A stretch of DNA of 54,652 bases from positions 1 to 54,652 of the forward strand of contig DAOULO010000050.1 of assembly GCA_034420195.1 (NCBI GenBank), in the 5' to 3' direction. The DNA comes from Dehalococcoidales bacterium. Lineage in GTDB: Bacteria > Chloroflexota > Dehalococcoidia > Dehalococcoidales > RBG-16-60-22. The notes below the pieces were generated by a model. The model had not been told where the DNA came from. It saw only the letters and a list, made by a program, of their open reading frames with translations, and searched no databases. Made by a program: the position numbers and the translations under genes. Within the stretch, counting starts at the first letter, position 1; every line of letters starts with the position of its first letter. Shown piece after piece: positions 4,863-53,011 of the stretch.

Positions 4863-4973
4863 TTTTTCCACCCTGGCCCGCTTACGCTAACCTGCCCGCC
4901 GCTCCTTCTGAGCTATGGCAGGCGGGAGCTTCAGCGGGCAGGCCGCCCTCGCGGCAGCGCCGCTTACCCCTGC
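4863..4973 (+). repeat. Family-A REP/BIME-like unit (solo, with an internal insertion of about 37 nt)
   Basis: TTTTTCCACCCTGGCCCGCTTACGCT...GCTTCAGCGGGCAGGCCGCCCTCGCGGCAGCGCCGCTTACCCC aligns with the unit at 13078-13158. Its TTA provides the stop codon of the LOG gene. Confidence 0.7.
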
Positions 4974-5650
4974 AGGGCCTTCTTGCCGACGACCTTGTGC
5001 TCCTGGTACCACTGGTTGACGGCCTTGACCGCCTCGGTGGGGGAATCGAAGACGCGCAGCAGCTCAAAGTCCTCCTCGGAGATGGCGCCGCAGGCCAGCA
5101 CCGTGTCCCTCAGCCAGTCCAGGAAGCCGTCCCAGTAATCACTGGAAAAGAGGATGACGGGAAAGGGCTTAATCTTCTGCGTCTGTATCAACGTCAGCAC
5201 CTCGGTGAGCTCATCCATGGTGCCCAGACCCCCCGGCATGATGATGAAGGCGGAGGCATACTTGACCAGCATGACCTTGCGCACGAAGAAGTGGTGAAAG
5301 GTGATGGTGCGGGTGGCGTAGTCGTTGCAGACCTGCTCGTGCGGTAACTCGATATTGAGGCCGACCGATATCATCCCCGCCCGGCTGGCCCCCTTGTTGG
5401 CCGCCTCCATGACGCCGGGGCCGCCGCCGGTCATGATGTTAAAGCCATCTTTGCCCAGCCGATAGGCGATTTCCTCGGTCTGGAGGTACTTCTCATCTCC
5501 CGGCTTGATGCGGGCCGAGCCGTAGATGGTCACCGCCGGCTCAATATCGGCCAGGCTGTCGAAGCCCTCGACCAGCTCGCCGATGATGCGGAACATCCGC
5601 CACGATTCTTCCTTGGCCAGTTCGTTGATTTCGTATCCGTTTTTTGTCAT
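4964..5650 (-). CDS. LOG family protein (TIGR00730-type; cytokinin riboside 5'-monophosphate phosphoribohydrolase-like)
   Basis: Motifs GGGPGVMEAAN and PGGLGTMDELTE. I trimmed the 261-aa ORF to the ATG at 5650 (MTKNGYE...), which follows GGGAGG. Confidence 0.88.
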   Translation of the reverse strand: MTKNGYEINELAKEESWRMFRIIGELVEGFDSLADIEPAVTIYGSARIKPGDEKYLQTEEIAYRLGKDGFNIMTGGGPGVMEAANKGASRAGMISVGLNIELPHEQVCNDYATRTITFHHFFVRKVMLVKYASAFIIMPGGLGTMDELTEVLTLIQTQKIKPFPVILFSSDYWDGFLDWLRDTVLACGAISEEDFELLRVFDSPTEAVKAVNQWYQEHKVVGKKALQG

Positions 5651-5672
5651 ATTGCCTCCCCGGGGTGGCAGG

Positions 5673-7079
5673 TTATTCCAGGCGGGCTTTGGTGCCGTAC
5701 GACGGCACCGAGGCCTCGTAGCCGGTTGTCTCCTTAAGGTAGGCCGCAAAACGCTCGGCGGCGGTCTTCTCGCCGTGGGTGACGAAGATATGCCGCGGCG
5801 CGACGGCCAGCTTGGAGAGCCATCGGATGAGCCCGTTGCGGTCGGCGTGGGCCGAGAAGCCGTGTATCTGGACTATTTTGGCGCGTATCGGGTGGCGGAT
5901 GCCGTGGATGCGCACGCTTTTGGCGCCGTTGATGATATGCCGGCCCAGCGTGCCTTCGGCCTGATAGCCGACGAAGAGCACCGTGGTCTCCGGCCGCGAG
6001 ATGTACTGGGCGAGGTGGTGCTTGACGCGGCCGCCGGTGCACATCCCCGAGCCGGCGATAATCATGACGGTGCCCTTGATATCGTTGAGGGCCTTGGACT
6101 CGTCCACCGTCTCCACCATGGTCAGGCCGGGGAAATCAAAAGGGGAATGACGGGCGTGCAGCAGGGCCTGCATCTCGCGGTCAAAAAGCTCGGCGTGGCG
6201 CTTGAAGACCTCGGTAATCTTGATGGCCATGGGGCTGTCCAGGTAGACCTTCAGCGCCGGGATGCGGCCTTCGCGGAGGAGCATGCTGAGGTAGTAGAGT
6301 ATCTCCTGGGCGCGCTGCAGGGCGAAGGAGGGGACGATAATCTTGCCGCCCATCTTGAAGGCTTCGTTGACAATCTTCACCAGGTCCTCGCCGATTTCAT
6401 TGGTACCCTCGTGCTCGCGGTCGCCGTAGGTGGACTCAACGACGATGTAGTCCGGCTGGCGGAACTGCGAGGGGTCTTCCAGCATGGGGCGGTTCCAGCG
6501 GCCGATATCGCCGGAGAAGACGATGCTGCGCTTCTGGTCGCCCTGGGTGATGACGACCTTTATCATCGCCGAGCCCAGGACGTGGCCGGCGTCGTAATAG
6601 GTGGCCTCGATGCCCGGCCCGACGGGGACGGCCTCGTTGTAAGCCACCCTCTCGAAGAGGGGCAGGGTGGCCTCGGCGTCCTCAATGGTATAGAGGGGAA
6701 CCTCCGGGTAGGGGCCCTGGCGTCCCTCGCGCTGGTGGCGTTTTTTCTTGTAGGCGGCGTCCTCCTCCTGAATCTTGGCCGAGTCGAGCAGGATAATCTT
6801 GGTGATATCGGCGGTGGCCGGTGTGGAGATAATCCGCCCCTTGAACCCGTCGGCCACCAGCTTGGGGAGCAGCCCGCAGTGGTCCAGGTGGGCGTGGGTG
6901 AGCAGGACGGCGGTGAGCTCGCCGGGGGGCACGCGGAAGGGCTCCCAGTTACGGTGCTGGAACTTTCTCTCCTGGTAGAGGCCGCAGTCCACCAGCAGCT
7001 TGATGCCGTTGGCCTCGATGAGATAGCGCGAGCCGGTGACGCCCCGCGCCGCCCCCAGGAAAGAGAGGTTGATGTCCAA
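5673..7079 (-). CDS. MBL-fold beta-CASP family hydrolase (RNA-metabolising metallo-beta-lactamase)
   Basis: 468 aa. It has the HxHxDH motif (LLTHAHLDHCG) and a beta-CASP-like middle and C-terminus (FSGDIG.., ESTYG, GFSAHAD). TTG start follows AAGGAGG. Confidence 0.85.
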   Translation of the reverse strand: MDINLSFLGAARGVTGSRYLIEANGIKLLVDCGLYQERKFQHRNWEPFRVPPGELTAVLLTHAHLDHCGLLPKLVADGFKGRIISTPATADITKIILLDSAKIQEEDAAYKKKRHQREGRQGPYPEVPLYTIEDAEATLPLFERVAYNEAVPVGPGIEATYYDAGHVLGSAMIKVVITQGDQKRSIVFSGDIGRWNRPMLEDPSQFRQPDYIVVESTYGDREHEGTNEIGEDLVKIVNEAFKMGGKIIVPSFALQRAQEILYYLSMLLREGRIPALKVYLDSPMAIKITEVFKRHAELFDREMQALLHARHSPFDFPGLTMVETVDESKALNDIKGTVMIIAGSGMCTGGRVKHHLAQYISRPETTVLFVGYQAEGTLGRHIINGAKSVRIHGIRHPIRAKIVQIHGFSAHADRNGLIRWLSKLAVAPRHIFVTHGEKTAAERFAAYLKETTGYEASVPSYGTKARLE

Positions 7080-7149
7080 GACGTGCCTCCTTGTACTTAA
7101 TATGATAGCATTGGAGGCATCTGGATGCCAGTCTACTCTGTCTTGGGGG

Positions 7150-7187
7150 GAAATCCCTCTCTTATCTCCCTTTATTAAAGGGAGAAG
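7150..7187 (+). repeat. Family-E small hairpin repeat
   Basis: GAAATCCCTCTCTTATCTCCCTTTATTAAAGGGAGAAG is the reverse complement, with a few mismatches, of 37154-37193. It contains the hairpin TCTCCCTTT..AAAGGGAGA. Confidence 0.6.
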
Positions 7188-7269
7188 CTATTACATTCAT
7201 CTCTGTTTTAAGTTTCCCCCTTTGTAAAAGGGGGATTAAGGGGGATTTTCCCAGGGGGAGTAGCCTGCG

Positions 7270-7374
7270 AAGAGGGGCGAAGCCCCTCTTAATTAATAAA
7301 TCCCCCTCTCCAGACAAAATGACAGTGGGTAAGCTATTACTCCAGTTTGGAGAGGGGGACACAGGGGGTGAGGT
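7270..7374 (+). repeat. Family-D double-hairpin repeat (copy 1)
   Basis: Hairpin 1 is AAGAGGGGCGAAGCCCCTCTT. Hairpin 2 is TCCCCCTCTCC..N37..GGAGAGGGGGA. The tail is CACAGGGGGTGAGGT. The same order is seen at 29914-29998, and inverted at 17494-17576. Confidence 0.8.
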
Positions 7375-7405
7375 AAAAATAAACCACGGGCTAAGCCGGT
7401 GAAAA

Positions 7406-8644: not shown

Positions 8645-8657
8645 AGCTCAACCGCCT

Positions 8658-8828: not shown

Positions 8829-9050
8829 TTAATATTCGATAATGGCAATCACCTCGCCGGGCTTGACCACCTGGTCGACCTTGACGTTTATCTCGGTCAC
8901 GGTGCCGTCCACCGGGGCCAGCAGGGGGTTTTCCATCTTCATGGACTCCAGGATGCAGATGACATCGCCTTCCTTGACGGTGTCGCCCACCTTCACGTCG
9001 ATGCTGAGAACCTTTCCGGTGATGGGAACTTCAACCTTTTCCTGTGCCAA
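8829..9050 (-). CDS. Biotin carboxyl carrier (biotinyl/lipoyl attachment domain) subunit
   Basis: 73 aa. The biotinylation motif is in ...ICILESMKMENPLLAP (xMKM), and the fold pattern is V..G..V..GD.L..IE. Confidence 0.85.
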   Translation of the reverse strand: MAQEKVEVPITGKVLSIDVKVGDTVKEGDVICILESMKMENPLLAPVDGTVTEINVKVDQVVKPGEVIAIIEY

Positions 9051-9087
9051 ATTTTAAAGCTCCTTTCTGGTTACCGCCAAGTTCCTA

Positions 9088-9129
9088 ATTTAAAAGGGCG
9101 GTGGGCTCAACTCGCTGAACTCACCGCCC
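9088..9129 (-). terminator. Intrinsic terminator downstream of clpC
   Basis: On the minus strand, GGGCGGTG..loop..CACCGCCC (8-bp GC stem, 9096-9103 / 9122-9129) is followed by TTTTAAATT. Confidence 0.5.
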
Positions 9130-9165
9130 CATTATACCGGAGTCGGTTATATAAGTCACGCCGGA

Positions 9166-11634
9166 CTATTTCTTTTTGGCACCCACGGCGCCGACGGGCT
9201 CGGCGTGGATAACGACTTCCTCGCCCTTGAGGTCGACGACGATGGTATCGCCGGCCTGGAACTTGCTGCTCAGCAGGTCTTCGGAGAGGCGGTCTTCAAT
9301 CGTGTTCTGGATGACGCGCCTAAGCGGCCGGGCGCCGTATTCCTCGTTGTAACCCTTCTCGCCGAGGAAGTCCTTGGCGGCGTCGGTCACTTTGAGGGAG
9401 ATGCCCTTCTCGATGAGCTGCTTGGAGACGTTGGCCAGCATCAGGTCGACGATGGCGCGTATCTGCTCCTTGTCCAGCGAGCGGAAGACCACCTGGTCGT
9501 CAACGCGGTTGAGGAACTCCGGCTTGAAGCGCTTTTTCAGCTCGCCGAGGAGGTTTTCTTTCATCCGCTCGTAGCTCTGCTCCCGCGTCTTGGCCTCGTC
9601 GCTGCGCGAGGTGAAGCCAATGCTGGCGCCCTTGCGGATGAGCTCGGCGCCGATGTTGGAGGTCATGATAATCACGCTGTTGCGGAAGTCCACGCGGCGG
9701 CCCTTGGCGTCGGTGAGGTGGCCGTCGTCGAATATCTGCAAAAGTAAATTAAAGACGTCCTCGTGCGCCTTCTCGATTTCATCCAGCAGGATGCAGCAGT
9801 AGGGCTTGCGGCGCACCGCCTCGGTAAGCTGGCCGCCCTCGTCGTAGCCGACGTAGCCGGGCGGCGCCCCCACCAGGCGGGAGACGGCAAACTTCTCCAT
9901 GAACTCGGACATGTCGATGCGTATCAGGCTGTCCTCGCTGCCGAACATGAACTCGGCCAGGGTGCGGGCCAGCTCCGTCTTGCCGACGCCGGTGGGCCCC
10001 AGGAAGATGAAATTGCCGATGGGGTGGCGCGGGTCTTTGAGGCCGGCCCGGGCGCGGCGGATGGCCTTGGAGATGGTGGTAATGGCCTCGTCCTGCCCCA
10101 CGATGCGCTTGTGCAGCTCCTCTTCCATGTTGAGCAGGCGGCTCATCTCGTCGCCAGCCAGCTGCACCACGGGGACGCCAATCCACATGCTGACCACCTC
10201 GGCGATGTCCTCGGCGGTCACCTCCGGCTGGTCCTGCTCCTGCTCGTTCTTCCACTCCGCCTCAAGCTGCTTGATTTTCTCGTCTATCTGCGTTTCCCGC
10301 TCGCGCAGCTCCGAGGCATAGTCGTAGTCCTGGGTGTTCAGGGCCGCCTCTTTGTCCTTGCGGATGTTATCGCCCAGCTGCTTGGCCTCTTTGAGGGTAA
10401 TGGGCATGGTGCGGTGCTTGATGCGCACCCGCGACGACGCCTCGTCGACGAGGTCGATGGCCTTATCCGGCAGGAAGCGGTCGGGGATGTAGCGCGAGGC
10501 CAGATTGGCGGCGGCGTTGAGGGCCTCGTCGCTGATGGTTAAATGGTGGTGCTCCTCGTAGCGCTCGCGGATACCGCGCAGGATGTCCAGCGTGGCGTCC
10601 ACGGAAGGCTCTTCCACCAGCACCGGCTGGAAGCGCCGCTCCAGGGCGGCGTCGCGCTCCACGTACTTGCGGAAGTCGTCCAGGGTGGTGGCGCCGATGC
10701 ACTGTATCTCGCCCCGCCCCAGGGAAGGCTTTAAAATATTGGCGGCGTCCACGGCGCCCTCGGCGGCGCCGGCCCCCACCATGGTGTGAAACTCGTCGAT
10801 GAAGAGCACGCAGTTACCGGCCGTCTTAATTTCCTCGATGATTTTCTTGAGGCGCTCCTCGAACTCACCGCGGTACTTCGTCCCCGCCACCAGCGAGCCC
10901 ATGTCCAGGGCGATGAGGCGGCGGTCTTCCAGCGTCTCGGGGACGTCGCCGGCCACGATGCGGTGGGCCAGCCCCTCGACGATGGCCGTCTTGCCCACGC
11001 CCGGCTCGCCGATGAGGGCGGGGTTGTTCTTGGTGCGGCGCGATAAAATCTGTATCAGCCGCTCGATTTCCTTGTGCCGCCCGATGACCGGGTCGAGCTT
11101 GCCGGCGCGGGCGGCCGCGGTTAAATCAATACCCAGCTGGTCGAGGGCCGGGGTGCGTGAGGTGGAGCGGGTCAGCCTGGCCTTGGGCGTGCCCTGGGTG
11201 AGGATGTGGGCCGTCTCGGCGCGGGCGCGGTCCAGGGTGATGCCGAAGCTGTCCAGCACGCTGGAGGCCACGCCTTCGCCCTCGCGGAGGAGCCCCAGCA
11301 GCAGGTGCTCGGTGCCGATGTAGTTGTGGCCCATCTGGCGGGCCTCGTCGATGGCCAGCTCGATGACCTTCTTGGCGCGGGGGGTCAGGCCGGTCTCGCC
11401 GCTGCCGGGCTTCTCGCCCCGGCCGATGATGAACTCCACGGCGGAGCGCACCTTACCCAGACCGATGCCCAGGTTGGTGAGCACCTTGGCGGCCACGCCT
11501 TCCTCCTCGCGTACCAGCCCGAGCAGGATGTGCTCGGTGCCGATGTAGTTATGGTTGAGGTTGCGCGCCTCTTCCTGCGCGATGGTGAGGACGCGGCGGG
11601 CCCTTTCCGAGAATTTTTCAAATCTGCTGGCCAT
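9166..11634 (-). CDS. clpC: ATP-dependent Clp protease ATP-binding subunit ClpC
   Basis: 822 aa. It has two Clp_N repeats ([12 protein letters not shown] / [12 protein letters not shown]), two AAA modules ([16 protein letters not shown]) and a UVR-like linker between them. Confidence 0.95.
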
Positions 11635-11687
11635 GTCTTTGTCCTGGTGCGGCGTAAGCCGGGGGCAGTACCCCCTCTATTCCTAAT

Positions 11688-11715
11688 ATTATAATAAAGG
11701 ATTTTGTAAAAGCAA
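11688..11715 (-). promoter_or_regulatory. Candidate sigma-70-type promoter of clpC
   Basis: On the minus strand, TTGCTT (11715-11710), a 16-nt spacer and TATAAT (11693-11688), about 50 nt upstream of the clpC ATG. Confidence 0.4.
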
Positions 11716-11775
11716 GCATGAGGAGTCTAGTTGATATTGATTATTGGGGAGAAGCCGCCGGCTGAAATTGAAAAA

Positions 11776-11900
11776 GCCTCCTGGCAGTGGCATATTTTCC
11801 ACAAAGGGTTACCCCCTCAGTATCGTCTGCGCTGGGGCGTTTCACTTCCGTGTTCGGGATGGGAACGGGTGGGGCCACCCCGCTCTAACCACCAGGAGGC
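11776..11900 (-). rRNA. rrf: 5S ribosomal RNA (orphan; no 16S/23S nearby)
   Basis: The reverse complement reads GCCTCCTGGTGGTTAGAGCGGGGTGGCCCCACCCGTTCCCATCCCGAACACGGAAGTGAAACGCCCCAGCGCAGACGATACTGAGGGGGTAACCC...CCACTGCCAGGAGGC. This includes the universal CCGAACACGGAAGT loop and a closing helix I (CCTCCTGG / CCAGGAGG). A T5 run follows the 3' end. Confidence 0.85.
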
Positions 11901-12066
11901 TCTTCTCCGGGCTTAAGCTATGCAGTTGTTAAAGCTCTGTTTCCAAGTTATATTCTAGCATAATATCCGCCGCAAAGAAAGGGCTAAAACTTGTATTTTC
12001 TTCCGGGGGTTAGCCCGGTTTGCCCGCCCGATGGGTAAATGGAGCGGGGGCCAATACAAAACGCCC

Positions 12067-12095
12067 TTGACATCCCCCAAGACAAGTGCTAGTTT
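12067..12095 (+). promoter_or_regulatory. Candidate promoter of remA-gmk
   Basis: TTGACA (12067-12072), a 17-nt spacer and TAGTTT (12090-12095). GAGGTGA precedes the remA ATG. Confidence 0.35.
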
Positions 12096-12136
12096 AGGGG
12101 AGGACTTTTCCCAGAATCATACCGCGAGGTGATAAT

Positions 12137-12430
12137 ATGGCTATAGATCTGGTGCACATCGGGTTTGGTAACATTCTGGCGATGAACCGGGCTATCGCCA
12201 TCGCCTCGCCGAATTCGGCCCCCACCAAGCGCGTCATCCACGATGGTAAGAACAACGGCAAGGTTGTCGATATGACCAGCGGGCGGCGTACCAAGGCGGT
12301 CATCTTCACCGATAGCGGTCACATCATCTTGGCGGCCCTGGCCCCGGAGACTATCGCCAGCCGCCTGCATACCGGCCGCCCCGCGGCGATGCTCAAGTCG
12401 GACCTGAGCGAAGGCGCCGATGAGCCGTGA
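12137..12430 (+). CDS. remA: RemA/DUF370 family regulatory protein
   Basis: 97 aa. The sequence ...LVHIGFGNILAMNRAIAIASPNSAPTKRVI...GKVVDMTSGRRTKAVIFTDSGHIIL matches RemA (YlzA). It lies directly upstream of gmk and overlaps it, the conserved remA-gmk arrangement. Confidence 0.85.
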   Translation: MAIDLVHIGFGNILAMNRAIAIASPNSAPTKRVIHDGKNNGKVVDMTSGRRTKAVIFTDSGHIILAALAPETIASRLHTGRPAAMLKSDLSEGADEP

Positions 12431-13046: not shown

Positions 13047-13051
13047 AGATT

Positions 13052-13307: not shown

Positions 13308-13330
13308 GTAGCCCCCTCTGCATCAGGCCT

Positions 13331-14972: not shown

Positions 14973-14984
14973 GGCTATCTCTCC

Positions 14985-16447: not shown

Positions 16448-16522
16448 CCCCATCACCTCCCCCTCGGTGTTATCTATTCCCACCCGGCCGCCTTCTAGCG
16501 GCGGCGCCTTCGGGGCGGAGGG
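16448..16522 (+). repeat. Family-A REP/BIME-like unit (solo, 3' half diverged)
   Basis: CCCCATCACCTCCCCCTC..GTTATCTATTCCCACCCGGCCGCC... It contains the stop codon and the last roughly 10 codons of the 16495-17466 ORF. Confidence 0.65.
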
Positions 16523-44242: not shown

Positions 44243-47200
44243 CTAGACAGAGCGCCTAGTGCGGACAATCAGGATAATGACCGCAATCACCAGTACGGCA
44301 CCGATGACGATTATCACCCAGATGTAGGCCGGGGAAATCTCCTCGGTTGCAGGCGGCTGGAAGGTTACCTGGGTTGCCTGCGGTGCGGGCGGGATGGTAA
44401 TCGTGGGTGCGGGTACCTGCGTGATTACTACCGGAGGTGCAGCGGTCGGAGGTGTTGCCGCGCCAGAACCCGCGACACCAACCGTGGTGAAGGCTACGGT
44501 GGGCGCCCAGGTGTTGTTGGTGCCAGCACCGATGGCCCTTACCGTCCAGTAGTAGGTGGTGTTGTAGTCCAGGGTGTAGACGGCTGCCGTCAGCTTGTAG
44601 GCGTTGACAACACCCAGGGCGTTGGCGCCGGTGAGGTCAACCAGCAGGTTGGTCAACGCGGCGTCGGTGCCCAGCTTGAACTCGTAGCCGGTGGCGCCAG
44701 CGATGCTACCCCACTGGAAGGCGGGGTTGACATCGGCGTCCCAGCCGCCGTAGTTCGTGCCGCCCTCGAACGGGCCGAGGATGACCGGCGAGTTGACAAC
44801 CGCCGCTACCAGCTCGGTGTTGAAGGTGTAGGTCGAGGACCACGGGCCGAACACTGGCCACCGTACTCGTACCTGCCAGTAGACGGTCTGACCGTTGACG
44901 GGCAAGCGGGGGACTGCCAGTGGAGGTAGAGGAGCGGCAGCGATCACGACGACGGTGGGATCGAAGAGGATCGCCGAGTTAACGGGAACAGCCGAGAGGA
45001 AGTCGGCGCGGGTGTCGTAGCGCATCGTGTAGTTCCAGGCACCGGGGACAGCACTGAAGGTGAAGGTGACGGAGGCCTGGGTGTTGTCCACCACGCTGCC
45101 GACCGCCGGGGTGATGCCCGTCGGGGTGGCGGTGCACAGGGTGTCGGTGAAGGTGCGCACCAGGGAAACGTTGCGGGCAACGGCCCAGATGACGTCGCCG
45201 CCCTTGGTCATGACGGTCAGGGTATCACCGACAACGAGCAGGTCACCCCCGGTAACGAGCTCGACCAAGGCCGGGACCGGGACCAGCGGGTCAAGGATGC
45301 GGAGCATACCGCCAGCTATGGGAGTCGAGGCCGTGATGTCGGTGGCGTAGAGTGCGCCGCACGGGTCGGAAAAGATGTCCTGCGGCAACAGGTTGATGCC
45401 ACCGTCAATGGCGAAAACACCCCAGTTGGTGCTGATGCCTATCGTGGCGCGCCAGACGCCGGCCGCACCGTTATCCGCGGCGTAGATGGTGCTGTTGGTG
45501 GCGTAGTTGGTATCGAATTCAACGATACCTGCACCAACGTTACCGCCGGCACCGATGGCCAAACCACCAGCGACCGGGACGTAGCTGATGTTGCCGTTGG
45601 TGGAGAGGTAGACAACGTTGGCGGCCGAGGCGACCAGCAGGTGGCCGGTAGCCGTGTCAACCTTGATTTGGTTGACGGCACCACCAGCCACGATGGGCGT
45701 GGCGGCTACCTGCCAGGTCCAGCCGCCGGTGGTGGTGGACTGAACGTTGGTTGCCGCTGCGCCGCCGACGTAGATGGTGTACTGGTCTCTAACGGCGACA
45801 TCTCCGGGGCCTATCGGGCAGGAGCGTCCGGCCCAGGTGGCGCCGCCGTCGACGGAGATTTGGATGTTACCGGCGACCACTGCGGCGTTGATGTCGGCCA
45901 GGTAGACGGTCATATCCGTCGCGTAGTTGGGGGAGGGTCGGACGATACCGGTATTGCCGGCGAGAACAGCCGAGTATACGCGGTACCAGACAGCGCCGCC
46001 GTCGGTGCTCTTCCAGAGGCTATCCGCGCCACCAGCGCCGTCGTTGGTCAGCATGAAGATTTCGGTGGCGCTGACGGCCTGGATGTCGTTGATGCCGGCG
46101 GGGGCAACGATGAAGGTATCAATGAGGCCGGACTGGTAGAAGTTGGCGCCATTGTTATCGGAGATGGAAACGCCGCTGTTGAGGCCGGTCGTGCCGGCGT
46201 AGATGCGGCTGCTGGTAGCGTAGTCGTTGGCCGGGTAGACGTAGGTGCACTCACCGCCGACAGTAGCGCCGGTGGGCGGAGCCCAGGCGGCCGTGAAGGC
46301 AATGAAGACCGACGCAGGATTGGTCGAAACGTAGACCTGGGTGTTCGCGGCCGCGCCGGCAATCAGGCTGCCGGTGGCGCCCATGCCGACGAAGGCCAGG
46401 CTGGAGAACGTAGCATCGGCCACCAGGGTGGAGGGCTGAATCAGGGTGGGGCCGACCGCCGAGCCGACGGCCAGGCGGTAAAGCCTGTCATCGGGCTGGC
46501 CACTGCGCGCGGCCACGTAGACGGTGCGCGCCAGCGGCTGGCTGCCGTTGAAGTCGGACGGGATGGCCAGCTCAGCAGTGACGATGCCGGTACCAACCCC
46601 GCCAACATCAAGGATGGCGCCGGTCGGCGTGGCAATGGCCACGGCCGCGCCGATGGTGGCATCCCAGGCGGCGCCGGTGACCAGGGTGTGCACCGCGGTG
46701 CGCGCCGCCGTGGAGGCGACGCAGATGAGGGTGGCGTCAATGGGGAAGTTGGGCGAGTACATCACATCGGTGACATCCTCAGTACCGGCGAAGACAGCAT
46801 CGTAGCTTGCCCAGTTCTGCACGCCGCCGCGGCCCCAGATGAGGACATCGGGAAGAGCCGCGACACCGGCGAGCGGGTCGGCCAGGCCAAGGGCTATCTC
46901 GCCGACGCCGGCGTTATAGTTGGGAGAAACGGCCACCGAGGTGGCCAAGAGGCCAGCACCCCCGGTCCCGCCGAGGACGGCGAAAGTCGCACCCCAGTTG
47001 GTGGAGATGTAGACCTGAGCTAAGGGGGCGACGGTATTGCCCGCCACGATAACGGTGCCGTCAGTCGCGTAGCTGGGCGAAATCTCCAGGTCCACGATGT
47101 TGGCGGGAATCGCCACCGAGGGTATCCAGGTGACACCGCCGTCAATCGAGCGGTAGACGACGTCGGCCGCGGCCGGGTTGGTGTCGACGGCTAAGATATC

Positions 47201-47401
47201 GCCGTTGGGCGCTACCTTCACGAATGAGGCGTCAACACCAAGTGTTGCTGCTGTGAAGATCTGGAAGGTCAGAGGACTGGGGATTGCCTGAGTCGACCAG
47301 GCCAGCGTGGCGGCCGAGGCCGGTAAGGCTATGACGAGAAGACTGGCCAGCAGTATCAGCGCCAGACCAACGCCACAAAGTTTAACTAGTCTTTTTTTCA
47401 T
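44243..47401 (-). CDS. Large surface (S-layer-like) protein 2, paralogous in architecture to 39592-42771
   Basis: 1052 aa. The ATG follows AGGAGGAAAT. The signal peptide is MKKRLVKLCGVGLALILLASLLVIALPASAA. Asp-box motifs are SIDGGVTW, STNWGATF, SDNNGANF, STDGGAVW and SVDGGATW. Two stalk domains follow (...GQTVYWQVRV..GPWS..YTF.T; ...FQWGSIAGATGYEFKL...TTYYWTVRA...W...VAFTT). Then come a PT-rich linker, a TM helix (AYIWVIIVIGAVLVIAVIILIV) and RTRRSV. Confidence 0.8.
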   Translation of the reverse strand: MKKRLVKLCGVGLALILLASLLVIALPASAATLAWSTQAIPSPLTFQIFTAATLGVDASFVKVAPNGDILAVDTNPAAADVVYRSIDGGVTWIPSVAIPANIVDLEISPSYATDGTVIVAGNTVAPLAQVYISTNWGATFAVLGGTGGAGLLATSVAVSPNYNAGVGEIALGLADPLAGVAALPDVLIWGRGGVQNWASYDAVFAGTEDVTDVMYSPNFPIDATLICVASTAARTAVHTLVTGAAWDATIGAAVAIATPTGAILDVGGVGTGIVTAELAIPSDFNGSQPLARTVYVAARSGQPDDRLYRLAVGSAVGPTLIQPSTLVADATFSSLAFVGMGATGSLIAGAAANTQVYVSTNPASVFIAFTAAWAPPTGATVGGECTYVYPANDYATSSRIYAGTTGLNSGVSISDNNGANFYQSGLIDTFIVAPAGINDIQAVSATEIFMLTNDGAGGADSLWKSTDGGAVWYRVYSAVLAGNTGIVRPSPNYATDMTVYLADINAAVVAGNIQISVDGGATWAGRSCPIGPGDVAVRDQYTIYVGGAAATNVQSTTTGGWTWQVAATPIVAGGAVNQIKVDTATGHLLVASAANVVYLSTNGNISYVPVAGGLAIGAGGNVGAGIVEFDTNYATNSTIYAADNGAAGVWRATIGISTNWGVFAIDGGINLLPQDIFSDPCGALYATDITASTPIAGGMLRILDPLVPVPALVELVTGGDLLVVGDTLTVMTKGGDVIWAVARNVSLVRTFTDTLCTATPTGITPAVGSVVDNTQASVTFTFSAVPGAWNYTMRYDTRADFLSAVPVNSAILFDPTVVVIAAAPLPPLAVPRLPVNGQTVYWQVRVRWPVFGPWSSTYTFNTELVAAVVNSPVILGPFEGGTNYGGWDADVNPAFQWGSIAGATGYEFKLGTDAALTNLLVDLTGANALGVVNAYKLTAAVYTLDYNTTYYWTVRAIGAGTNNTWAPTVAFTTVGVAGSGAATPPTAAPPVVITQVPAPTITIPPAPQATQVTFQPPATEEISPAYIWVIIVIGAVLVIAVIILIVRTRRSV

Positions 47402-47820: not shown

Positions 47821-49086
47821 CTAGCCGGCCAGCCGCTCGGGCAGCTCGCCCAGGGGCAGGCTCTCCTGACTGGCGGCGGCCATGTCCCGCAGGGTGGCCG
47901 TACCCGTCCGCACCTCGTCCTCCCCGATAATCACGGCGAAGCGCGTCCCCAGCGAGTTGGCCTGGCGCAGCTGGGCCTTGAGGCTTTTATCGCCGGCGGC
48001 CGTAACCACGCTGATGCCTGCCTCCCGCAGGCGCGCCGCCAGTGCTAACCCCTCGTCGCGGGCGGCCTCGCCCAGGCAGGCGATGAAGACCCGGGGCGGG
48101 GGTGGGGCGGGCACGGCGACGCCGGCTTTCTTCAAGTTCAGGATTATCCGCTCGATGCCGGCGGCAAAACCAATGGCCGGGGTGGGCTTGCCCCCCAGCT
48201 CCTCGATGAGGTCGTCGTAGCGGCCGCCGCCCCCCAGCGTGCTCTGGCCGCCCTCTTCGCGCGGCTGCACCTCAAAGACGGTGCGGGTATAGTAATCCAG
48301 ACCGCGCACCAGCCGGTGGTTTACCTGGAAAGGAATATCCAGCCGCTTGAGGTATTTCTGCAGGCTGGCGAAGTGCGCGTCGCAGGCCGGGCAGAGGTGG
48401 TCGGCGTAGTGCGGGGCGTCCCCGGCCATCTCCTGGCAGGCCGCCTGCTTGCAGTCCAGCAGGCGCAGGGGGTTTTTCTCAAGCCGCGTCCGGCAGTCCG
48501 GGCAGAGCCGGGCGGTGTGGGCGGCGTAGTAGTCGGTCAGGGCGGCCAGATAACCCGGGCGGCAGGCCCGGCAGCCGATGCTGTTGATTTGCAGTGTGAT
48601 ATCCTTAAGCCCCAGGGTCTTATAGAAGCTCCAGGCCATGCCGATAATCTCGGCATCAAGAATGGGGTCTCCCTCCCCGATGGCCTCGGCGCCGAACTGG
48701 TAGTGCTGGCGGTAGCGGCCCGCCTGGGGGCGGTCGTAGCGGAAGATGGGCGAGATATAATAGAGCCGCACCGGCTGGGGGAGGTTGGCCATGCCGTGCT
48801 GGAGATAGGCCCGGCAGACCGCCGGCGTGCCTTCCGGCTTGAGGGTGAGGGAGTTGCCGCCCCGGTCGTCGAAGGTATACATCTCCTTCTGGACGAGGTC
48901 GGTGTACTCCCCGGCGCTGCGGCGGAAAAGCCCGGTATCCTCGAAGATGGGGGTATCGAGGCGCTGGTAGCCGTAGCGGCGGCTTACCTCGGCGGCCACC
49001 TGCTCCACGTAGCGCCAGTAGGGCTGCTCCTCCGGCAGGATATCGGCCGTCCCGCGCGCGGCCTGGTAAGGTTTTTCCTTGGTCAT
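47821..49086 (-). CDS. hisS: Histidine--tRNA ligase
   Basis: 421 aa. Class II motifs are ...YYISPIFRYDRPQAGRYRQHYQFGAE... and ...LGGGGRYDDLIE..GG...PA.GFA.G.ERI. An anticodon-binding C-terminal domain follows. Confidence 0.95.
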   Translation of the reverse strand: MTKEKPYQAARGTADILPEEQPYWRYVEQVAAEVSRRYGYQRLDTPIFEDTGLFRRSAGEYTDLVQKEMYTFDDRGGNSLTLKPEGTPAVCRAYLQHGMANLPQPVRLYYISPIFRYDRPQAGRYRQHYQFGAEAIGEGDPILDAEIIGMAWSFYKTLGLKDITLQINSIGCRACRPGYLAALTDYYAAHTARLCPDCRTRLEKNPLRLLDCKQAACQEMAGDAPHYADHLCPACDAHFASLQKYLKRLDIPFQVNHRLVRGLDYYTRTVFEVQPREEGGQSTLGGGGRYDDLIEELGGKPTPAIGFAAGIERIILNLKKAGVAVPAPPPPRVFIACLGEAARDEGLALAARLREAGISVVTAAGDKSLKAQLRQANSLGTRFAVIIGEDEVRTGTATLRDMAAASQESLPLGELPERLAG

Positions 49087-49132
49087 TCTTAAGGCTAGAA
49101 TACAGTATTTATTGCGGGTATGTAAAGAGAGA

Positions 49133-49270
49133 GGGGAAAATCCCCCTCCGCCCCGCCCCGTTCGGAGTAATCTATTCCCGCCCAGGCCCCGCCTGCGCTA
49201 AGGCTCTGGCGGGTAAACTGCCCTCGGCACATCCGCGGCTTAGCCCGTGGGTAGGGATAAAGGGGGTGAG
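49133..49270 (+). repeat. Family-A REP/BIME-like unit (solo, long variant)
   Basis: GGGGAAAATCCCCCTCCGCCCCGCCCC..TAATCTATTCCCGCCCAGGCCCCGCCTGCGCTAAGGCTCTGGCGGG..CCCTCGGCACATCCGCGGCTTAGCCCGTGGG..AAAGGGGGTGAGG. It aligns with 13078-13158. Confidence 0.8.
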
Positions 49271-49392
49271 GCAGCACCGAAATTTAGGCGGCGTTTTACA
49301 CCCCTGCCCTTTTGGGCTATACTAAAGACACATCCTACTTTATGAAAACAAAAGAAAGCAATATCTCTATTTCCGGCTTGGGGCGGGATGTC

Positions 49393-51612
49393 ATGGAACT
49401 GAGCAGGCTGCTGGAAAAGGCCGGGGAATATCTCCCCCCGGACAAGCTCCCCGTTATTGAGGAGGCGTATAATTTTGCCGCCGCCAAGCACGCCGGACAG
49501 ACGCGCCTCTCCGGCGAGCCTTACATCGAGCACCCCGTGCAGACGGCCTATATCCTGGCCGAGCTCCAGCTGGACGCCAGCTCTTTGGCCGCGGCGTTGC
49601 TGCACGACATCCCCGAGGATACCGGCCTGCCCCTGGCCGATATCGAGGCCAAGTTCGGGCCGGAGATAGCCAAGCTCGTCGACGGCGTCACCAAGCTGGG
49701 CAAGGTCTCGCTGGCCCCCTCCGGTACCGGCACCGCGCAGGCGGAGAACATCCGCAAGATGCTGGTATCCATGGCCGAAGACATCCGCGTCGTCTTCATC
49801 AAGCTGGCCGACCGGCTGCACAACATGCGCACCCTGGACGCCCTCCCCAAGGAGCGCCAGCGCGTCAATGCCCGCGAGACGCTGGAAATCTTCGCCCCGC
49901 TGGCCCACCGCCTGGGAATCTGGGAGCTCAAGTGGCAGCTGGAAGACCTCTCCTTCCACTACCTCCAGCCGCAGGAGTACCAGCGCATCGTGCGGCTGGT
50001 GGACACCCGGCGCAACCAGCGGGAGAAGTTCATCGCCCAGGCCATCGACATAATTAAAAAAGAGTTCGACAAGGTTGGCATCGTCGCCGATATCTCGGGG
50101 CGTCCCAAGCACATCTACAGCATCCATCAGAAGATGGAAAAGTACGCCGCGATAGGGCGGCACTTCGACGAGATATACGACCTCCTGGCGCTGCGGGTGC
50201 TGGTCGGTAACGTCCAGGACTGTTACAGCGCCATCGGCATCATCCACTCGCTCTGGCATCCCCTGCCCGATGCCTTCGACGACTACATCGCCAATTCCAA
50301 GGCCAACGGCTACCAGGCGCTGCACACGGCGGTGATGGCCTTCGGCAAGACGCCCCTGGAGATACAGATACGCACCCACGACATGCACCACGTCGCCGAG
50401 TACGGGGTGGCCGCCCACTGGCGCTATAAAGAGGGCGGCAAGCCGGACATGCAGTTCGAAGATAGAGTCGCCTGGCTGCGCCAGCTCATCGACTGGCACC
50501 GCGAGGTGGCCGGCGCCGAGGAGTTCCTGGAATCGGTCAAGACGGACATCTTCATCGACCAGGTCTTTGTCTACACCCCCGGCGGCGAAATCAAAGACCT
50601 GCCCCGCGGCGCCACGCCGCTGGACTTCGCCTACCGCGTCCATACCGACCTGGGCCACCGCTGCGTGGGGGCCAAGGTCAACGGCAAGCTGGTGCCCTTC
50701 AACTACGAGCTCAAGAACGGCGACATCGTCGAGGTTATCGCCGCCAAGGGCAACCGCGGCCCCTCGCTCGACTGGCTCAACCCCACTTTGGGCTACGTCC
50801 ATACCTCCCACGCCAAGACCAAGATACGGCAGTGGTTCAACAAGCAGGAGCGGACGGAGAACATCGAGCGCGGCCGCCAGATTATGGATAAGGAGCTCAA
50901 GCGCCTGGGCATCCAGACGGAGCGCCCCGCCCTGGCCGAGCTGTTTGGCTACAGCAACCTGGACGACTTCCTGGCGGCGGTCGGCAACGGCACCATCACC
51001 GCCCATCAAATCGTCATCAAGCTGGCCACGCAGGAAGACGAGGAAAAAGCGCAGGAGGAAGTGGCCACCGCCGCGCCCCGGGTCACCCCCACGACGGTGC
51101 GGGTGCTGGGGGTCGGCGACCTGGTCACCTCCATCGCCCGCTGCTGTCACCCCGTCCCCGGCGATAAAATCATCGGCTACATCACCCGCTCGCGCGGGGT
51201 GAGCATCCACCGTGCCGACTGCCCCAACGTGGCCAACGAGGACGAGAAAGAGCGGCTCATCCCGGTGGAGTGGGGCCAGGGCGACGACTACTACCCGGTC
51301 AACGTTCAGGTGGAGGCCTGGGACCGGGTGGGCCTGGTGCGCGACGTGAGCACCGCCGTCGCCGAGGAGGGGGTCAACATCACCTCGGTCAACCTGGCCC
51401 GCGGCGATGGCCAGGCCATTACCGTATTTCTCACCCTGGAAATCAAGGGCCTGGCCCAGCTGAGCCAGATTGTCAAAAGAATCGACGCCGTCAAGGGCGT
51501 CATCAGTGTGAGCCGCCTGGGCGACGAGGCTTCCAAACCGGGAGCTGCCCCGAAACCGCCCCGCAAAGGCGGCGGCGGCTCGACAGAAAAAATTAGTGGA
51601 GGTAAATCTTGA
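49393..51612 (+). CDS. rel: Bifunctional (p)ppGpp synthetase/hydrolase (RelA/SpoT homologue)
   Basis: I trimmed the ORF to the ATG at 49393 (MELSRLLEKA...). The HD domain is HPVQTA.ILAEL..D...L.AALLHDIPEDT. The synthetase blocks are GRPKHIYSIHQKM and YDLLALRV. TGS (VFVYTPGGEIKDLPRGATPLDFAY) and a C-terminal ACT-like domain follow. Confidence 0.93.
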   Translation: MELSRLLEKAGEYLPPDKLPVIEEAYNFAAAKHAGQTRLSGEPYIEHPVQTAYILAELQLDASSLAAALLHDIPEDTGLPLADIEAKFGPEIAKLVDGVTKLGKVSLAPSGTGTAQAENIRKMLVSMAEDIRVVFIKLADRLHNMRTLDALPKERQRVNARETLEIFAPLAHRLGIWELKWQLEDLSFHYLQPQEYQRIVRLVDTRRNQREKFIAQAIDIIKKEFDKVGIVADISGRPKHIYSIHQKMEKYAAIGRHFDEIYDLLALRVLVGNVQDCYSAIGIIHSLWHPLPDAFDDYIANSKANGYQALHTAVMAFGKTPLEIQIRTHDMHHVAEYGVAAHWRYKEGGKPDMQFEDRVAWLRQLIDWHREVAGAEEFLESVKTDIFIDQVFVYTPGGEIKDLPRGATPLDFAYRVHTDLGHRCVGAKVNGKLVPFNYELKNGDIVEVIAAKGNRGPSLDWLNPTLGYVHTSHAKTKIRQWFNKQERTENIERGRQIMDKELKRLGIQTERPALAELFGYSNLDDFLAAVGNGTITAHQIVIKLATQEDEEKAQEEVATAAPRVTPTTVRVLGVGDLVTSIARCCHPVPGDKIIGYITRSRGVSIHRADCPNVANEDEKERLIPVEWGQGDDYYPVNVQVEAWDRVGLVRDVSTAVAEEGVNITSVNLARGDGQAITVFLTLEIKGLAQLSQIVKRIDAVKGVISVSRLGDEASKPGAAPKPPRKGGGGSTEKISGGKS

Positions 51613-51902
51613 CGGGTAAATCAGCCGAAAAACAGACGCGGGTCGCCTCACGGCGGCAGCAGCGCAATAAGGCCGTCCGCAGCCAGGTGAAGACCAATAT
51701 CACCAAGGCGGAGAAGCTCATCTTTGACGGCGACCTCAAGGTGGCTCAGGCCGCCGTCACCGAGGCGGTCAGCTCCCTGGATAAAGCGGCGGAGAAGAAA
51801 ATACTCCACGCTAATAATGCCGCGCGGCGCAAGTCGCGGCTGCTGAAGAAGCTGAATGAGATAATCGCCGAGTCCAAGGCCCTGCCCGAGGCGGAAGAAT
51901 AG
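51609..51902 (+). CDS. rpsT: 30S ribosomal protein S20
   Basis: 97 aa with a TTG start that overlaps the rel stop by 4 nt. The sequence is ...KSAEKQTRVASRRQQRNKAVRSQVKTNITKAEKLI...A...V....SSLDKAAEKKILHANNAARRKSRL. Confidence 0.88.
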   Translation: MTGKSAEKQTRVASRRQQRNKAVRSQVKTNITKAEKLIFDGDLKVAQAAVTEAVSSLDKAAEKKILHANNAARRKSRLLKKLNEIIAESKALPEAEE

Positions 51903-51965
51903 CTAGACACAGCGGCCCCGTCATCCGAGGGGCCGCCCGGGCTGGCCTGACGGGTAAGGGCGGGG

Positions 51966-52109
51966 CTAGTCCGATGAGGGTATGGGGCGGGCTTCCTGGA
52001 CTTCCATGGGCTGGTCGCAGCAGGTAAGCTCGCCGGTACCGGCCTTGGTGCAGAGGGCTTCGGTATTACATTTTGAGCAGCGGTATCTTTTACCTAGTTG
52101 GCTGGCCAA
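51966..52109 (-). CDS. Desulforedoxin-like small protein 2 (not in the ORF track)
   Basis: My own translation from the TTG at 52109 (GGAGGA 6 nt upstream) gives MASQLGKRYRCSKCNTEALCTKAGTGELTCCDQPMEVQEARPIPSSD (47 aa). It has the same Cx2C-x15-CC spacing as its neighbour. Confidence 0.5.
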   Translation of the reverse strand: MASQLGKRYRCSKCNTEALCTKAGTGELTCCDQPMEVQEARPIPSSD

Positions 52110-52136
52110 TTGCTGTCCTCCTGCCTGATAGGCTGG

Positions 52137-52256
52137 TTACTTTTTCTGTTCCATGGGCTGCCCGCAGCAGGTGATGGTGCCGCTGCCTCCCTTGGTGATA
52201 ATCATTTCAGAGCCGCACTTGGTGCAGCGGTATCTCTTGCCGACCTGATTTGCCAT
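52137..52256 (-). CDS. Desulforedoxin-like small protein 1 (Dx-type FeS4 motif)
   Basis: I trimmed the 61-aa ORF to the ATG at 52256, which follows AGAGGTGA. The protein is MANQVGKRYRCTKCGSEMIITKGGSGTITCCGQPMEQKK (39 aa). The Cx2C-x15-CC..PM pattern matches desulforedoxin and the desulfoferrodoxin N-domain. Confidence 0.6.
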   Translation of the reverse strand: MANQVGKRYRCTKCGSEMIITKGGSGTITCCGQPMEQKK

Positions 52257-52332
52257 ACGACTCACCTCTTTGCGAGTGTTTAATCCTTCCTTATTATAAG
52301 CCCGCCGGCTAGGGGTTGTCAAAGCTGATTTC

Positions 52333-52413
52333 AGGGGGTTTCCCCCGCCTCCCCATCGGAATTATCTATTCCCACCCTAGCCGCCCTTGCGGCATCCTCG
52401 GCTTATCCCGTAG
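52333..52413 (+). repeat. Family-A REP/BIME-like unit (solo)
   Basis: GGGGGTTTCCCCCGCCTCCCCATC..ATTATCTATTCCCACCCTAGCCGCCCTTGCGGCATCCTCGGCTTATCCCGTAG. It ends 3 nt before the flavodoxin stop codon. Confidence 0.8.
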
Positions 52414-52415
52414 AT

Positions 52416-52850
52416 TTATCCCCCGGCGAGCTTTTTGCCCAACTCCTTACAGGCGGCCAGGTTCTCCTCGGTGGGCTGGCGCTGGATGCCCAGGCTGTCG
52501 GTAACGCGTTTCATCCGGAGGCCGTCGCAGATGTGCTCCACGCTCTCGATGGCGGCCAGGCCCCCGCCCCCGTAGCTGCCGAAGACGGCGTAGGGCTTAT
52601 CGGCCATTTTCTCGCGCACGTGAATCCAGACGCGGTCGAAGAAGTCCTTGACCATCCCGGCCATGTAGGCGAAGTAGTTGGGCGTGCCGATGGCGACGGC
52701 GTCGCAGCCGAGCAGGTCTTTCTCGTCGACGTCGGGGGCCTTTTTCAGGGTCACCTTGGCCCCGGCGGCCTCGGCCCCGGCGGCGACGGCCCGGGCCATG
52801 GTCTCGGTATTGCCGCTCTGGGAGTGGTAGACGATGAGCAGGTTTTTCAT
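52416..52850 (-). CDS. Flavodoxin-family protein
   Basis: 144 aa. The FMN-binding start is MKNLLIVYHSQSGNTETMA. Further blocks are ...DAVAIGTPNYF and SYGGGG. The ATG follows AAGGAGGAA. Confidence 0.85.
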   Translation of the reverse strand: MKNLLIVYHSQSGNTETMARAVAAGAEAAGAKVTLKKAPDVDEKDLLGCDAVAIGTPNYFAYMAGMVKDFFDRVWIHVREKMADKPYAVFGSYGGGGLAAIESVEHICDGLRMKRVTDSLGIQRQPTEENLAACKELGKKLAGG

Positions 52851-52932
52851 AGACGGGCGTTCCTCCTTGCGGGTATTTTGAAGCTATGTTCCGGCCATGA
52901 AGTATAACCGTGGAGCCGCTAGGGTGTCAAAC

Positions 52933-53011
52933 GGGGTGGTTCCCCTCCACCCCTCAGTGTTATCTATTCCCACCCTAGCCACCCAGTGTCATCCGCGGCT
53001 TAGCCCGTAGG
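52933..53011 (+). repeat. Family-A REP/BIME-like unit (solo)
   Basis: GGGGTGGTTCCCCTCCACCCC..GTTATCTATTCCCACCCTAGCCACCCAGTGTCATCCGCGGCTTAGCCCGTAGG. Its TTA (53000-53002) is the pyrK stop codon. Confidence 0.8.

Follow-up and report, generated by a model that had tools for sequence, protein, structure and literature searches.

Among described bacterial repeats, the BOX (boxA-boxBn-boxC), SPRITE and RUP elements of Streptococcus pneumoniae follow the coding strand in their orientation and are overrepresented downstream of genes (PMC3049150). By comparison of architecture, BOX with its terminator-like companion SPRITE (PMC3049150) is the closest analogue of a small interspersed repeat family that lies in a 54,652-nucleotide stretch of a Dehalococcoidales bacterium (contig DAOULO010000050.1, positions 1 to 54,652; the whole stretch is called the window here). 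The family is organized around a conserved unit of ~75 nt, the A unit, together with B-type units and companion modules (M1, M2, M3, M6 and M7). It is restricted to a single uncultivated lineage within the Dehalococcoidia (Chloroflexota) and apparently undescribed, and the kind of element is a familiar one. Like BOX, it is intergenic and forms modular composites with conserved end modules, internal modules that vary in number and kind, and mutually complementary ends; BOX itself exceeds 100 copies per genome and has no dedicated transposase. The terminator-like SPRITE is comparable to module M3, and effects on neighbouring expression have been proposed for BOX. The Dehalococcoidia units are unrelated to BOX, RUP and SPRITE in sequence, reside in a different host phylum and differ from them in being strand-neutral. 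Tight folding as RNA is predicted for BOX, whereas the A unit has no consensus fold; BOX is confined to pneumococcus and close relatives, whereas this family spans many species-level metagenome-assembled genomes (MAGs) at 75–90% nucleotide identity.

The elements are polar mosaics bounded by terminal inverted repeats (TIRs). They are confined to the spaces between genes and occur there in both orientations, singly, in head-to-tail tandems or as inverted pairs. Their unusual features are an asymmetric, non-palindromic unit, a strict mosaic polarity, frequent head-to-tail arrays, and a core that is kept across species- to genus-level divergence without sign of ongoing copying. Judging from sequence organization and conservation, we favour, with a probability of roughly 0.55, a non-autonomous modular family that resembles BOX, the bacterial interspersed mosaic elements (BIMEs) and MITEs (miniature inverted-repeat transposable elements); it would have spread in trans long ago, with the units serving as a conserved end module, the core being recognized by a protein and the element acting at gene boundaries.

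The small interspersed intergenic repeat family is real. Within the window, TCTATTCCCACCC with up to two mismatches has 11 matches, nine of them genuine units, against 1.4 expected, and GCGGCTTAGCCCGT has 10 matches against 0.9 expected; none of 100 shuffles was as high in either case. The inventory comprises 10 A-type units (core starts at 4863+, degenerate; 13082+; 16475+, tail lost; 20946-; 29792+; 34262-; 37237-; 49173+; 52367+; and 52965+), four B-type units (core starts at 13277-, 20810+, 34098+ and 37005+) and two tail-only fragments (7386–7399 and 32079–32092). B-type units have the flank in common with A units, combined with the core TTTCCCACCC, a different body and no tail motif. Every copy is intergenic or overlaps the final codons of genes, in what Pfam analysis of 49 open reading frames (ORFs) identifies as an ordinary chromosomal segment encoding a RecN/SMC-like protein, a beta-CASP RNase, OAD-beta, ClpC, RemA, Gmk, PHO4, MgsA, HisS, RelA, S20, a flavodoxin and others. 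A preliminary description of this DNA had proposed a dense family of at least 14 units, intergenic or at gene 3' ends, which agrees with the inventory of 10 A and four B units, with motif counts far above the shuffles and with the gene positions. Inspected one by one, the intervals that it listed each hold the sequence described, and they are real as intervals but cut short, the units being parts of larger mosaics (29776–29998 and 7137–7399).

The distribution was surveyed with the 22-base gapped pattern TCTATTCCCACCC-N18-48-GCTTAGCCC, for which ~2 chance matches are expected, over one genome per GTDB species. The pattern occurs in at least 86 genome stretches, all from MAGs assigned to Dehalococcoidia, Dehalococcoidales, Dehalococcoidaceae or Chloroflexota, and sediment metagenomes add at least 120 stretches; confinement of the motif to this one region, which the preliminary description had named as the outcome that would undo its proposal, was not what the scan returned. 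The genome loci studied (numbered L below) derive from 18 assemblies. An nhmmer profile recovers 343 copies in 1.32 Mb of element-bearing loci, and 91 of 119 hidden Markov model matches that had not been selected by the pattern (76%) carry at most one mismatch in the 13-nt core. Across 2.9 million viral contigs the pattern has no match, and phage carriage of the unit was rejected. Neither the element nor any Dehalococcoidia repeat family was found in Rfam or among 8.3 million searchable papers, whether looked for by taxon with repeat terms or by literal motif string. Many matches lie within ~100 nt of a contig end (L022, L053, L079, L138 and others).

On its C-rich strand, the A unit has the consensus CCCCnCCnCCCC-(T)TCGGnG-TTATCTATTCCCACCC-nnGCC(G/A)CCCTCG-nnn-CATC-nGC-GGCTTAGCCCGTAG. 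Its best-conserved parts, the core TTATCTATTCCCACCC and the tail GGCTTAGCCCGTAG, are asymmetric, and the top 16 nt lie outside any palindrome; the palindromic character that the preliminary description had given to the unit belongs only to composites, as inverted ends. Positions outside the search pattern are 75–100% conserved, including CC(G/A)CCC, CATC, the TA preceding the core and the G preceding GCTTAG. Chance similarity, or a low-complexity artefact of intergenic composition, has next to no probability: intergenic DNA here is generally rich in C and G tracts, but the shuffles never match the counts, more than 200 stretches carry the pattern with all named sources being Dehalococcoidia MAGs, and the conservation just described extends beyond the pattern itself.

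Companion modules sit on the tail side of the unit. Within 150 nt of the tail of 108 units, M1 occurs 22 times, M2 14, M3 20, M6 11 and M7 10 times, versus 0–3 times each on the flank side. M1 is CCCCTTTACCCC, M2 a CTCCCTTT..AAAGGGAG hairpin, M3 a GAGGGG..CCCCTC hairpin, and M7 a TTCCCCCTCTCC-loop-GGAGAGGGGGAYACAGGGGGTGAGGT hairpin followed by A/T-rich DNA. The order flank, A core, body, tail, M1, (M2-M6), M3, M7 recurs in 38 non-redundant copies, and A, B1, B2, M1, M2, M3, M6 and M7 together form a BIME/BOX-type mosaic with preferred polar order. The C-tract flank, best preserved as ACCTCACCCCCTGTGTCCCCCTC, is in some copies the exact inverse of the M7 right end, while the right end of a composite is either ...GAGGGGGAYACAGGGGGTGAGGT or an inverted B-type unit, the latter serving as opposite end at 13052–13307, 20787–20976, 34069–34291 and 36951–37264. 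Head-to-tail tandems of two or three A units occur in L007, L016, L025, L035 and L069. Over the 1.32 Mb of loci, M7 is found 81 times, M3 67 times and M2 ~41 times. The features of the window are as follows.

4863–4973, plus strand: degenerate long-variant A unit; core TTTTTCCACCC, tail decayed to GCCGCTTACCCC, nested hairpin insertion in the body.
7137–7399, plus strand: companion-module mosaic without an A core, 260 bp, in the order M2-M6-M3-M7; M2 hairpin at 7166–7184, M6 CCCCCTTTGTAAAAGGGGG, M3 terminator-like hairpin, M7 hairpin with right end GGAGAGGGGGACACAGGGGGTGAGGT (7349–7375), then an inverted tail fragment at 7386–7399.
13052–13159, plus strand: long-variant A unit that has an additional hairpin (CCCGCT..AGCGGG) and immediately follows the gmk stop codon (13046).
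13185–13307, minus strand: B2-type unit, inverted partner of the 13052 A unit, directly after the stop of a PHO4-family gene (13331).
16448–16522, plus strand: truncated A unit; flank and core intact, GC-rich sequence in place of the tail; nhmmer E = 1e-7.
17489–17547, plus strand: M7 module (TTTTTACCTCACCCCCTGTGTCCCCCTCTCC, loop, GGAGAGGGGGA), elsewhere a composite left flank or right end.
20787–20871, plus strand: B1-type unit with body GTGGCATCCTGCCACTA.
20896–20976, minus strand: canonical A unit, inverted partner of the 20787 B1 unit, directly after the stop of a PMT-family gene (20987); E = 1e-16.
29776–29998, plus strand: full composite; A unit 29787–29842, M1 CCCCCTTTACCCCACCCC, M3 GGGGTGTTTAAGAGGGGTGAAGCCCCTCTTTTTT, M7 hairpin with right end 29945–29998.
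About 29905–29938: M3 terminator-like hairpin of the 29776–29998 composite.
32058–32092, minus strand: tail and M1 fragment; tail GCGGTTTAGCCCGTAG, M1 CCCCCTTTACCCCCC.
34069–34189, plus strand: B2-type unit.
34214–34291, minus strand: canonical A unit, directly after the stop of a PrpD-family gene (34294), inverted partner of the 34069 B2 unit; E = 3e-15.
36951–37066, plus strand: B1-type unit with an additional M7-like outer flank (CCTCACCCCTCTCC).
37076–37187, no strand assigned: internal hairpin modules of the 36951–37264 composite, CCCTCCTTAAGAAGGAGGG and M2 CTCTCCCTTTGGTAAAGGGAGAG (37157–37175).
37188–37264, minus strand: canonical A unit, right end of the 36951–37264 composite; E = 4e-16.
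49133–49270, plus strand: long-variant A unit with an M7-like right end (GGGATAAAGGGGGTGAGG), filling the spacer between the divergent hisS/relA promoters (49126 to 49097, minus strand; 49295 to 49323, plus strand).
52333–52414, plus strand: canonical A unit, flanked by the flavodoxin stop (52416) on one side and by a 12/12 sigma-70-like promoter (52322 to 52293, minus strand) on the other.
52933–53011, plus strand: canonical A unit; the TAA within GGGCTAAGCC (53000–53002) is the stop codon of the upstream gene.

The degenerate 4863 unit falls below the nhmmer threshold and is visibly homologous to the 13082 unit, with which it shares CCACCCTGGCCCGCTTACGCTAA...AGCTTCAGCGGGCAGGCCGCCCTCG; it carries a nested 36-nt hairpin. 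Between the 13052 A unit and the B2 unit at 13185–13307 lies an M1 hairpin (CCCCTTTACCCC..GGGGTAAAA). The preliminary description had taken 13052–13307 and 34069–34291 to be reverse complements, and they are indeed mutually inverted (91 nt at 85% and 35 nt at 80%), differing by a long versus a short body. The left arms at 20787 and 36951, which it called near-identical, are 80% identical over 91 nt. Among the companion modules, the 31-nt M7 ends (TTTTTACCTCACCCCCTGTGTCCCCCTCTCC) at 7349–7379 and 17489–17519 are 100% complementary over a distance of 10 kb, a far higher conservation than is seen at the variable positions of any A-unit pair. Two more short repeats occur in these spacers (L043, L009, L059, L066, L124 and others), GTCATTGCGAGGAGCnnnGCGACGnnGCAATC and TCCCGCGAAAGCGGGAATCCAG (or CCGGAATGAC); unlike M1–M7, they flank A units on both sides. 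In L123 (673–821, minus strand), an A unit begins 14 nt past a tRNA-Ser gene whose 3' acceptor strand (TCCCACCCCCTCCGCCA) replaces the C-tract flank, a case which hints that the flank may be target or neighbouring sequence and not part of the element.

Full composites share much with bacterial MITEs such as Correia/NEMIS of Neisseria, Nezha of cyanobacteria and ERIC/RU-1 of enterobacteria. MITEs are non-coding, ~100–400 bp long and bounded by TIRs; the composites measure 200–330 bp (230–330 bp for those in which ACCTCACCCCCTGTGTCCCCCTC is inverse to GAGGGGGACACAGGGGGTGAGGT), with TIRs of ~23–31 bp, and they are likewise non-coding and numerous, have A/T-rich sequence outside their ends, and can supply terminators or adjoin promoters. 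Classical MITE behaviour, in contrast, is not seen. No target-site duplication, cognate insertion sequence or near-identical young copy was found in the loci searched; many copies are half elements or head-to-tail arrays with fuzzy C-tract outer ends, and the core is conserved across species while the remainder drifts. Target-site duplications had been proposed as a check, and no direct repeat recurs outside 26 end pairs at M7-type ends; inspection of the window composites revealed none either, a test weakened by the fuzzy ends. The window holds no transposase, as the preliminary description had stated, and Pfam matches to its 49 ORFs include no integrase. The ORFs between inverted units are ordinary genes without a transposase, and six-frame ORF clustering detected no recurrent transposase-like ORF family among the loci.

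The elements are old: near-identical copies are absent, and sites are kept in related genomes. Identity at variable columns averages 65% within a MAG versus 58% between MAGs, and no pair inside one genome is near-identical in this comparison, the best pair reaching 87.5%. Locus L065 is ~90% identical to window 9034–16106 and L043 ~89% identical to 48193–54652, with L029 and L052 at ~75% nucleotide identity to syntenic window regions. Four window sites were set against L065 and L043 (the gmk 3' end, the hisS-relA spacer, and the 3' and 5' sides of the flavodoxin gene), and at each of them the relative carries the unit or a decayed remnant. By match coordinates, L052 has units at the equivalents of window 16475 and 20787–20976, and L029 has them on both sides of the flavodoxin gene. 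Orthologous copies differ in their mosaics: the long-variant A unit at gmk (13052) corresponds to a short variant in L065, the truncated 16448 unit to a complete one in L052, and extra modules are present in L043. The 52333 unit has its ortholog at the equivalent location in L043. Variable columns of the two flavodoxin-3' orthologs agree at only 72% (rank 22 of 119 comparisons), while the core as defined by the search pattern is identical and the tail differs by one base. In these comparisons the core looks as though selection maintains it site by site, with drift in the remainder of the unit and turnover of the surrounding mosaic.

The preliminary description likened the organization to BIME mosaics, a fair resemblance given the solo, tandem or inverted arrangement, and suggested mobilization by REP-associated tyrosine transposases (RAYTs). 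Under this explanation, the units would be repetitive extragenic palindromes (REPs) or inverted REPIN doublets copied by a RAYT encoded elsewhere, through a hairpin and a GTAG-type tetranucleotide on single-stranded DNA. Like REP/BIME and GTAG-REP/REPIN-RAYT systems (PMC3733652; PMC3116915), the family consists of short, dense intergenic copies, hundreds per genome being expected, which occur in mosaics and also singly, as dimers or in clusters, commonly close to gene 3' ends and in the spacers of convergent or tandem gene pairs; the copies persist vertically, as reported for REPIN-RAYT systems. Most tails end G-T/G-A-G (GTAG, GGAG, GTGG), so that a GTAG-like tetranucleotide stands at one end; GTAG repeats are known in Chloroflexi, from Thermomicrobium roseum (PMC3733652); and many copies show by eye a weak 5–7-bp stem, GCCGC(C)/(G)GCGGC, in which some pairs are G-T and compensatory changes are occasionally found.

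Structural analysis of the unit makes mobilization by a RAYT unlikely. A REP is a 20–40-bp stem-loop with a 5–13-bp stem and compensatory changes, with unpaired GTAG/CGTC directly at the stem foot in >90% of members, whereas the Dehalococcoidia unit is ~75 bp long and asymmetric, its most conserved 16 nt standing outside palindromes. Its GTAG-like motif is detached, lying 3' of the sole weak stem and 7 nt from it, and the four positions G/T/A/G are present in 76/57/73/76% of copies (71, 53, 68 and 71 of 93). RNAalifold returned an empty structure for 120 copies on both strands, mean minimum-free-energy z-scores are only -0.6 and -0.7 for the two strands, and mutual information with average product correction gave adjacent-column signals only, without long-range covariation. 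Within the weak stem, an A in 23 of 93 copies makes an A-C mismatch on the C strand and the outer pairs tolerate G-T on the C strand only; therefore, neither strand is consistently paired. Compensatory change is confined to the optional inserted hairpins of long variants (CCCGCT/AGCGGG versus CCCGCC/GGCGGG). Head-to-tail dimers, rare for REPs (PMC3733652), are common here, and REPIN-RAYT populations are dominated by identical or near-identical masters, whereas no dominant master sequence or identical-copy set exists at the identities given above. A REPIN-RAYT system includes its RAYT, as a rule a single-copy gene with the repeats on its flanks; no Y1/HUH enzyme was found for these units in the window or in the 1.32 Mb of loci with their 343 copies, by HUH/Y regular expression and by phmmer with an approximate IS200 TnpA query, which is a weak test.

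The orientation of units bears on a role in RNA. The gene on the 5' side of the unit has the same orientation as the unit 57 times and the opposite one 50 times (genome loci and window); in a larger data set the figures are 99 versus 86 for units without a terminator module and 25 versus 24 for composites with a terminator-like module. Unit orientation is likewise unbiased with respect to local GC skew (94 versus 80, p = 0.32). An RNA element, whether a 3'-UTR stabilizer, a processing site, an M3-ended small RNA or a C-rich Rho-loading (rut-like) site, would draw on the composition of the C strand, which at 42% C and 18% G is rut-like and largely unstructured. It would also draw on the downstream M3 hairpins, whose T-runs follow the hairpin in the C direction in nine cases near units and in the opposite polarity in none (for example 29911–29938, AAGAGGGGTGAAGCCCCTCTTTTTT), on inserted body hairpins that vary in length with compensatory changes, and on some units without a C flank that immediately follow a -10-like box or a stop codon. 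We nevertheless regard a transcribed RNA as decidedly unlikely: orientation to the upstream gene is random, terminator-bearing composites included, promoters entering the unit are rare (8 of 120), and the covarying fold and consistent transcription orientation of a structured non-coding RNA of the Rfam type are both lacking. At the gathering threshold, Rfam matches only 5S rRNA over the whole window, and in permissive mode (E <= 10) on 52250–53100 it gives chance-level matches only. The A unit has no GC-rich hairpin with T-run, so that only companion M3 qualifies as an intrinsic terminator.

Other candidate identities were also considered for the unit. A tRNA-like origin was set aside, as ARAGORN found no tRNA in the window. 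The conserved GATG, the variable triplet and the TAG/TAA stops prompted a G-strand micro-ORF (MPRGRPGWE*), which was rejected since its frame is not kept: the copies are spread over all three frames, and the ATG is missing from 26 of the 120. Sigma-54, extracytoplasmic function (ECF) sigma factor and integration host factor (IHF) consensus sequences were compared with the unit by eye, and none fitted.

The two sides of the unit face different gene features. Just past the G-tract flank, a sigma-70-like promoter pointing away is present in 36 of 120 units, versus 8, 10 and 3 for the other three combinations of side and orientation; the -35 box mostly starts 26–47 nt from the core, that is, 0–20 nt past the flank end. 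An independent promoter scanner confirms flank-adjacent promoters at three window sites. The window promoters at 52322 to 52293 (12/12) and 52930 to 52901 (11/12, minus strand) stand 10 nt and 2 nt from their units, the latter beginning 2 nt past the flank of the 52933 unit. The tail side mostly faces gene 3' ends (53 versus 25 nearby), and stop codons lie within or beside the tail, as with the TAA at 53000–53002 and the TAG at 32084–32086, which is the stop codon of ORF 32084–32791. tRNA genes occur directly upstream of units and, in L069 and L067, directly downstream of flank-adjacent promoters. The spacing between promoter and unit is unphased, and juxtaposition is therefore more likely than an activator site. 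Beside the 52333 unit, the perfect TTGACA-N18-TATAAT promoter belongs to a small unannotated gene at ~52150–52260 (minus strand; MANQVGKRYRC..., preceded by GAGGTGA) that is conserved in L043.

The closeness of flank and promoter raises a further explanation, a G-quadruplex/i-motif boundary in which the G strand (GGGTGGG, ~16 nt, GGGGNGGGG; cf. GGGTGGGAATAGATAACACCGACGGGGCGGGG) folds upstream of promoters and modulates the promoter or blocks read-through, with only the tract pattern of the flank under selection. In 225 of 312 units there are four G3+ tracts, separated by loops of <=7, <=22 and <=7 nt, 252 of 312 have at least two G3+ tracts in the flank despite its variable sequence, and the flank abuts -35 boxes in ~30% of units. 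Such a fold, however, needs a non-canonical long central loop, a canonical G-quadruplex being found in only 3 of 312 flanks alone. It also leaves the exact conservation of AATAGATAA and of the tail GGCTTAGCCCGTAG unexplained, and C/G tracts are general to all companion modules of these genomes, making this a very unlikely account of the family.

We return to the non-autonomous modular family as the favoured reading. The full, polar element of ~230–330 bp runs from the C-tract flank ACCTCACCCCCTGTGTCCCCCTC through the core TTATCTATTCCCACCC and a variable body, with nested hairpins in some copies, to the tail GGCTTAGCCCGTAG, the C-tract linker CCCCTTTACCCC, at least one hairpin module, with a terminator-like hairpin among them, and a right end of inverted G tracts. 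A trans-acting enzyme that recognized the end module may have spread such elements as DNA in the past, with later shuffling by recombination between C/G tracts and by nested insertion. The core would still be under purifying selection at individual sites, for which the simplest reason would be continued binding by a putative sequence-specific protein, whether to double-stranded DNA or to DNA that is transiently single-stranded; candidates would include a domesticated transposase and a nucleoid-associated protein. A cellular effect would most likely be exerted at transcription-unit boundaries, as insulation, topology or read-through control, because units often occupy the gap from a stop codon to the following -35 box, and in parallel with proposals for REP/BIME and BOX/SPRITE.

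Several points weigh against this reading. No transposase or candidate trans-acting protein was found, and mobility is therefore inferred from architecture alone; no empty site was seen in the syntenic comparisons; and the outer flank is a loose C-tract pattern with no sharp terminus, which is unusual for ends recognized by a transposase. Site-level selection on the core rests on few syntenic comparisons and may be mimicked by hot-spot re-insertion or biased gene conversion. Gene calls in the loci were made by a crude heuristic based on ORFs and GC content at third codon positions (GC3), which renders the orientation statistics noisy, and the closeness of promoters to the flank may reflect short spacers in compact genomes. 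A bolder version, in which the core plus tail is a host-maintained punctuation mark, is improbable: it would be a putative, possibly G-quadruplex-capable site for a lineage-specific DNA-binding protein, separating transcription units between stop codon and -35 box in an insulator-like manner, with hundreds of selected sites per genome, across an entire Dehalococcoidia lineage, derived from an extinct mobile element.

Other genes of the window were noted in passing. A 5S rRNA gene (11779–11896, minus strand, 91 bits) is isolated between clpC and remA/gmk; the window contains no match to 23S rRNA, and this solitary arrangement is kept in the syntenic MAG contig L065. A heliorhodopsin gene (26500–27273, plus strand; Pfam PF18761, E = 4e-101) is present in what is presumably the genome of an anaerobic sediment Dehalococcoidia, and beside it a treble-clef zinc-finger protein is encoded at 25871–26173 (minus strand). 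Two minus-strand ORFs of ~1050 aa each, 39592–42771 with BNR/sortilin-type repeats and 44243–47401 without a Pfam match, have internal repeated segments in common. Beside the mosaics, the minus-strand ORFs 16495–17466, 17589–18353, 28736–29800 and 32084–32791 (235–354 aa) have no Pfam match; the first of them has a GC3 of 0.72, below that of its neighbours.

If the classification is right, it adds a well-defined, lineage-diagnostic repeat system for a phylum-level group known almost only from MAGs. The repeats probably fragment short-read assemblies and thereby affect MAG quality, and they can be used as markers for taxonomy or typing. They bring along ready-made terminators and alter the regions upstream of promoters. 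At individual sites, the 16-nt and 14-nt blocks are near-invariant while the other parts of the unit and the spacer around it drift, with coding identity at only ~75–90%. Such block-wise conservation is unlike that of dead transposon remnants and suggests that a trans-acting factor still reads these sites; finding it would provide a handle on the organization of chromosomes and transcription units in unculturable organisms.

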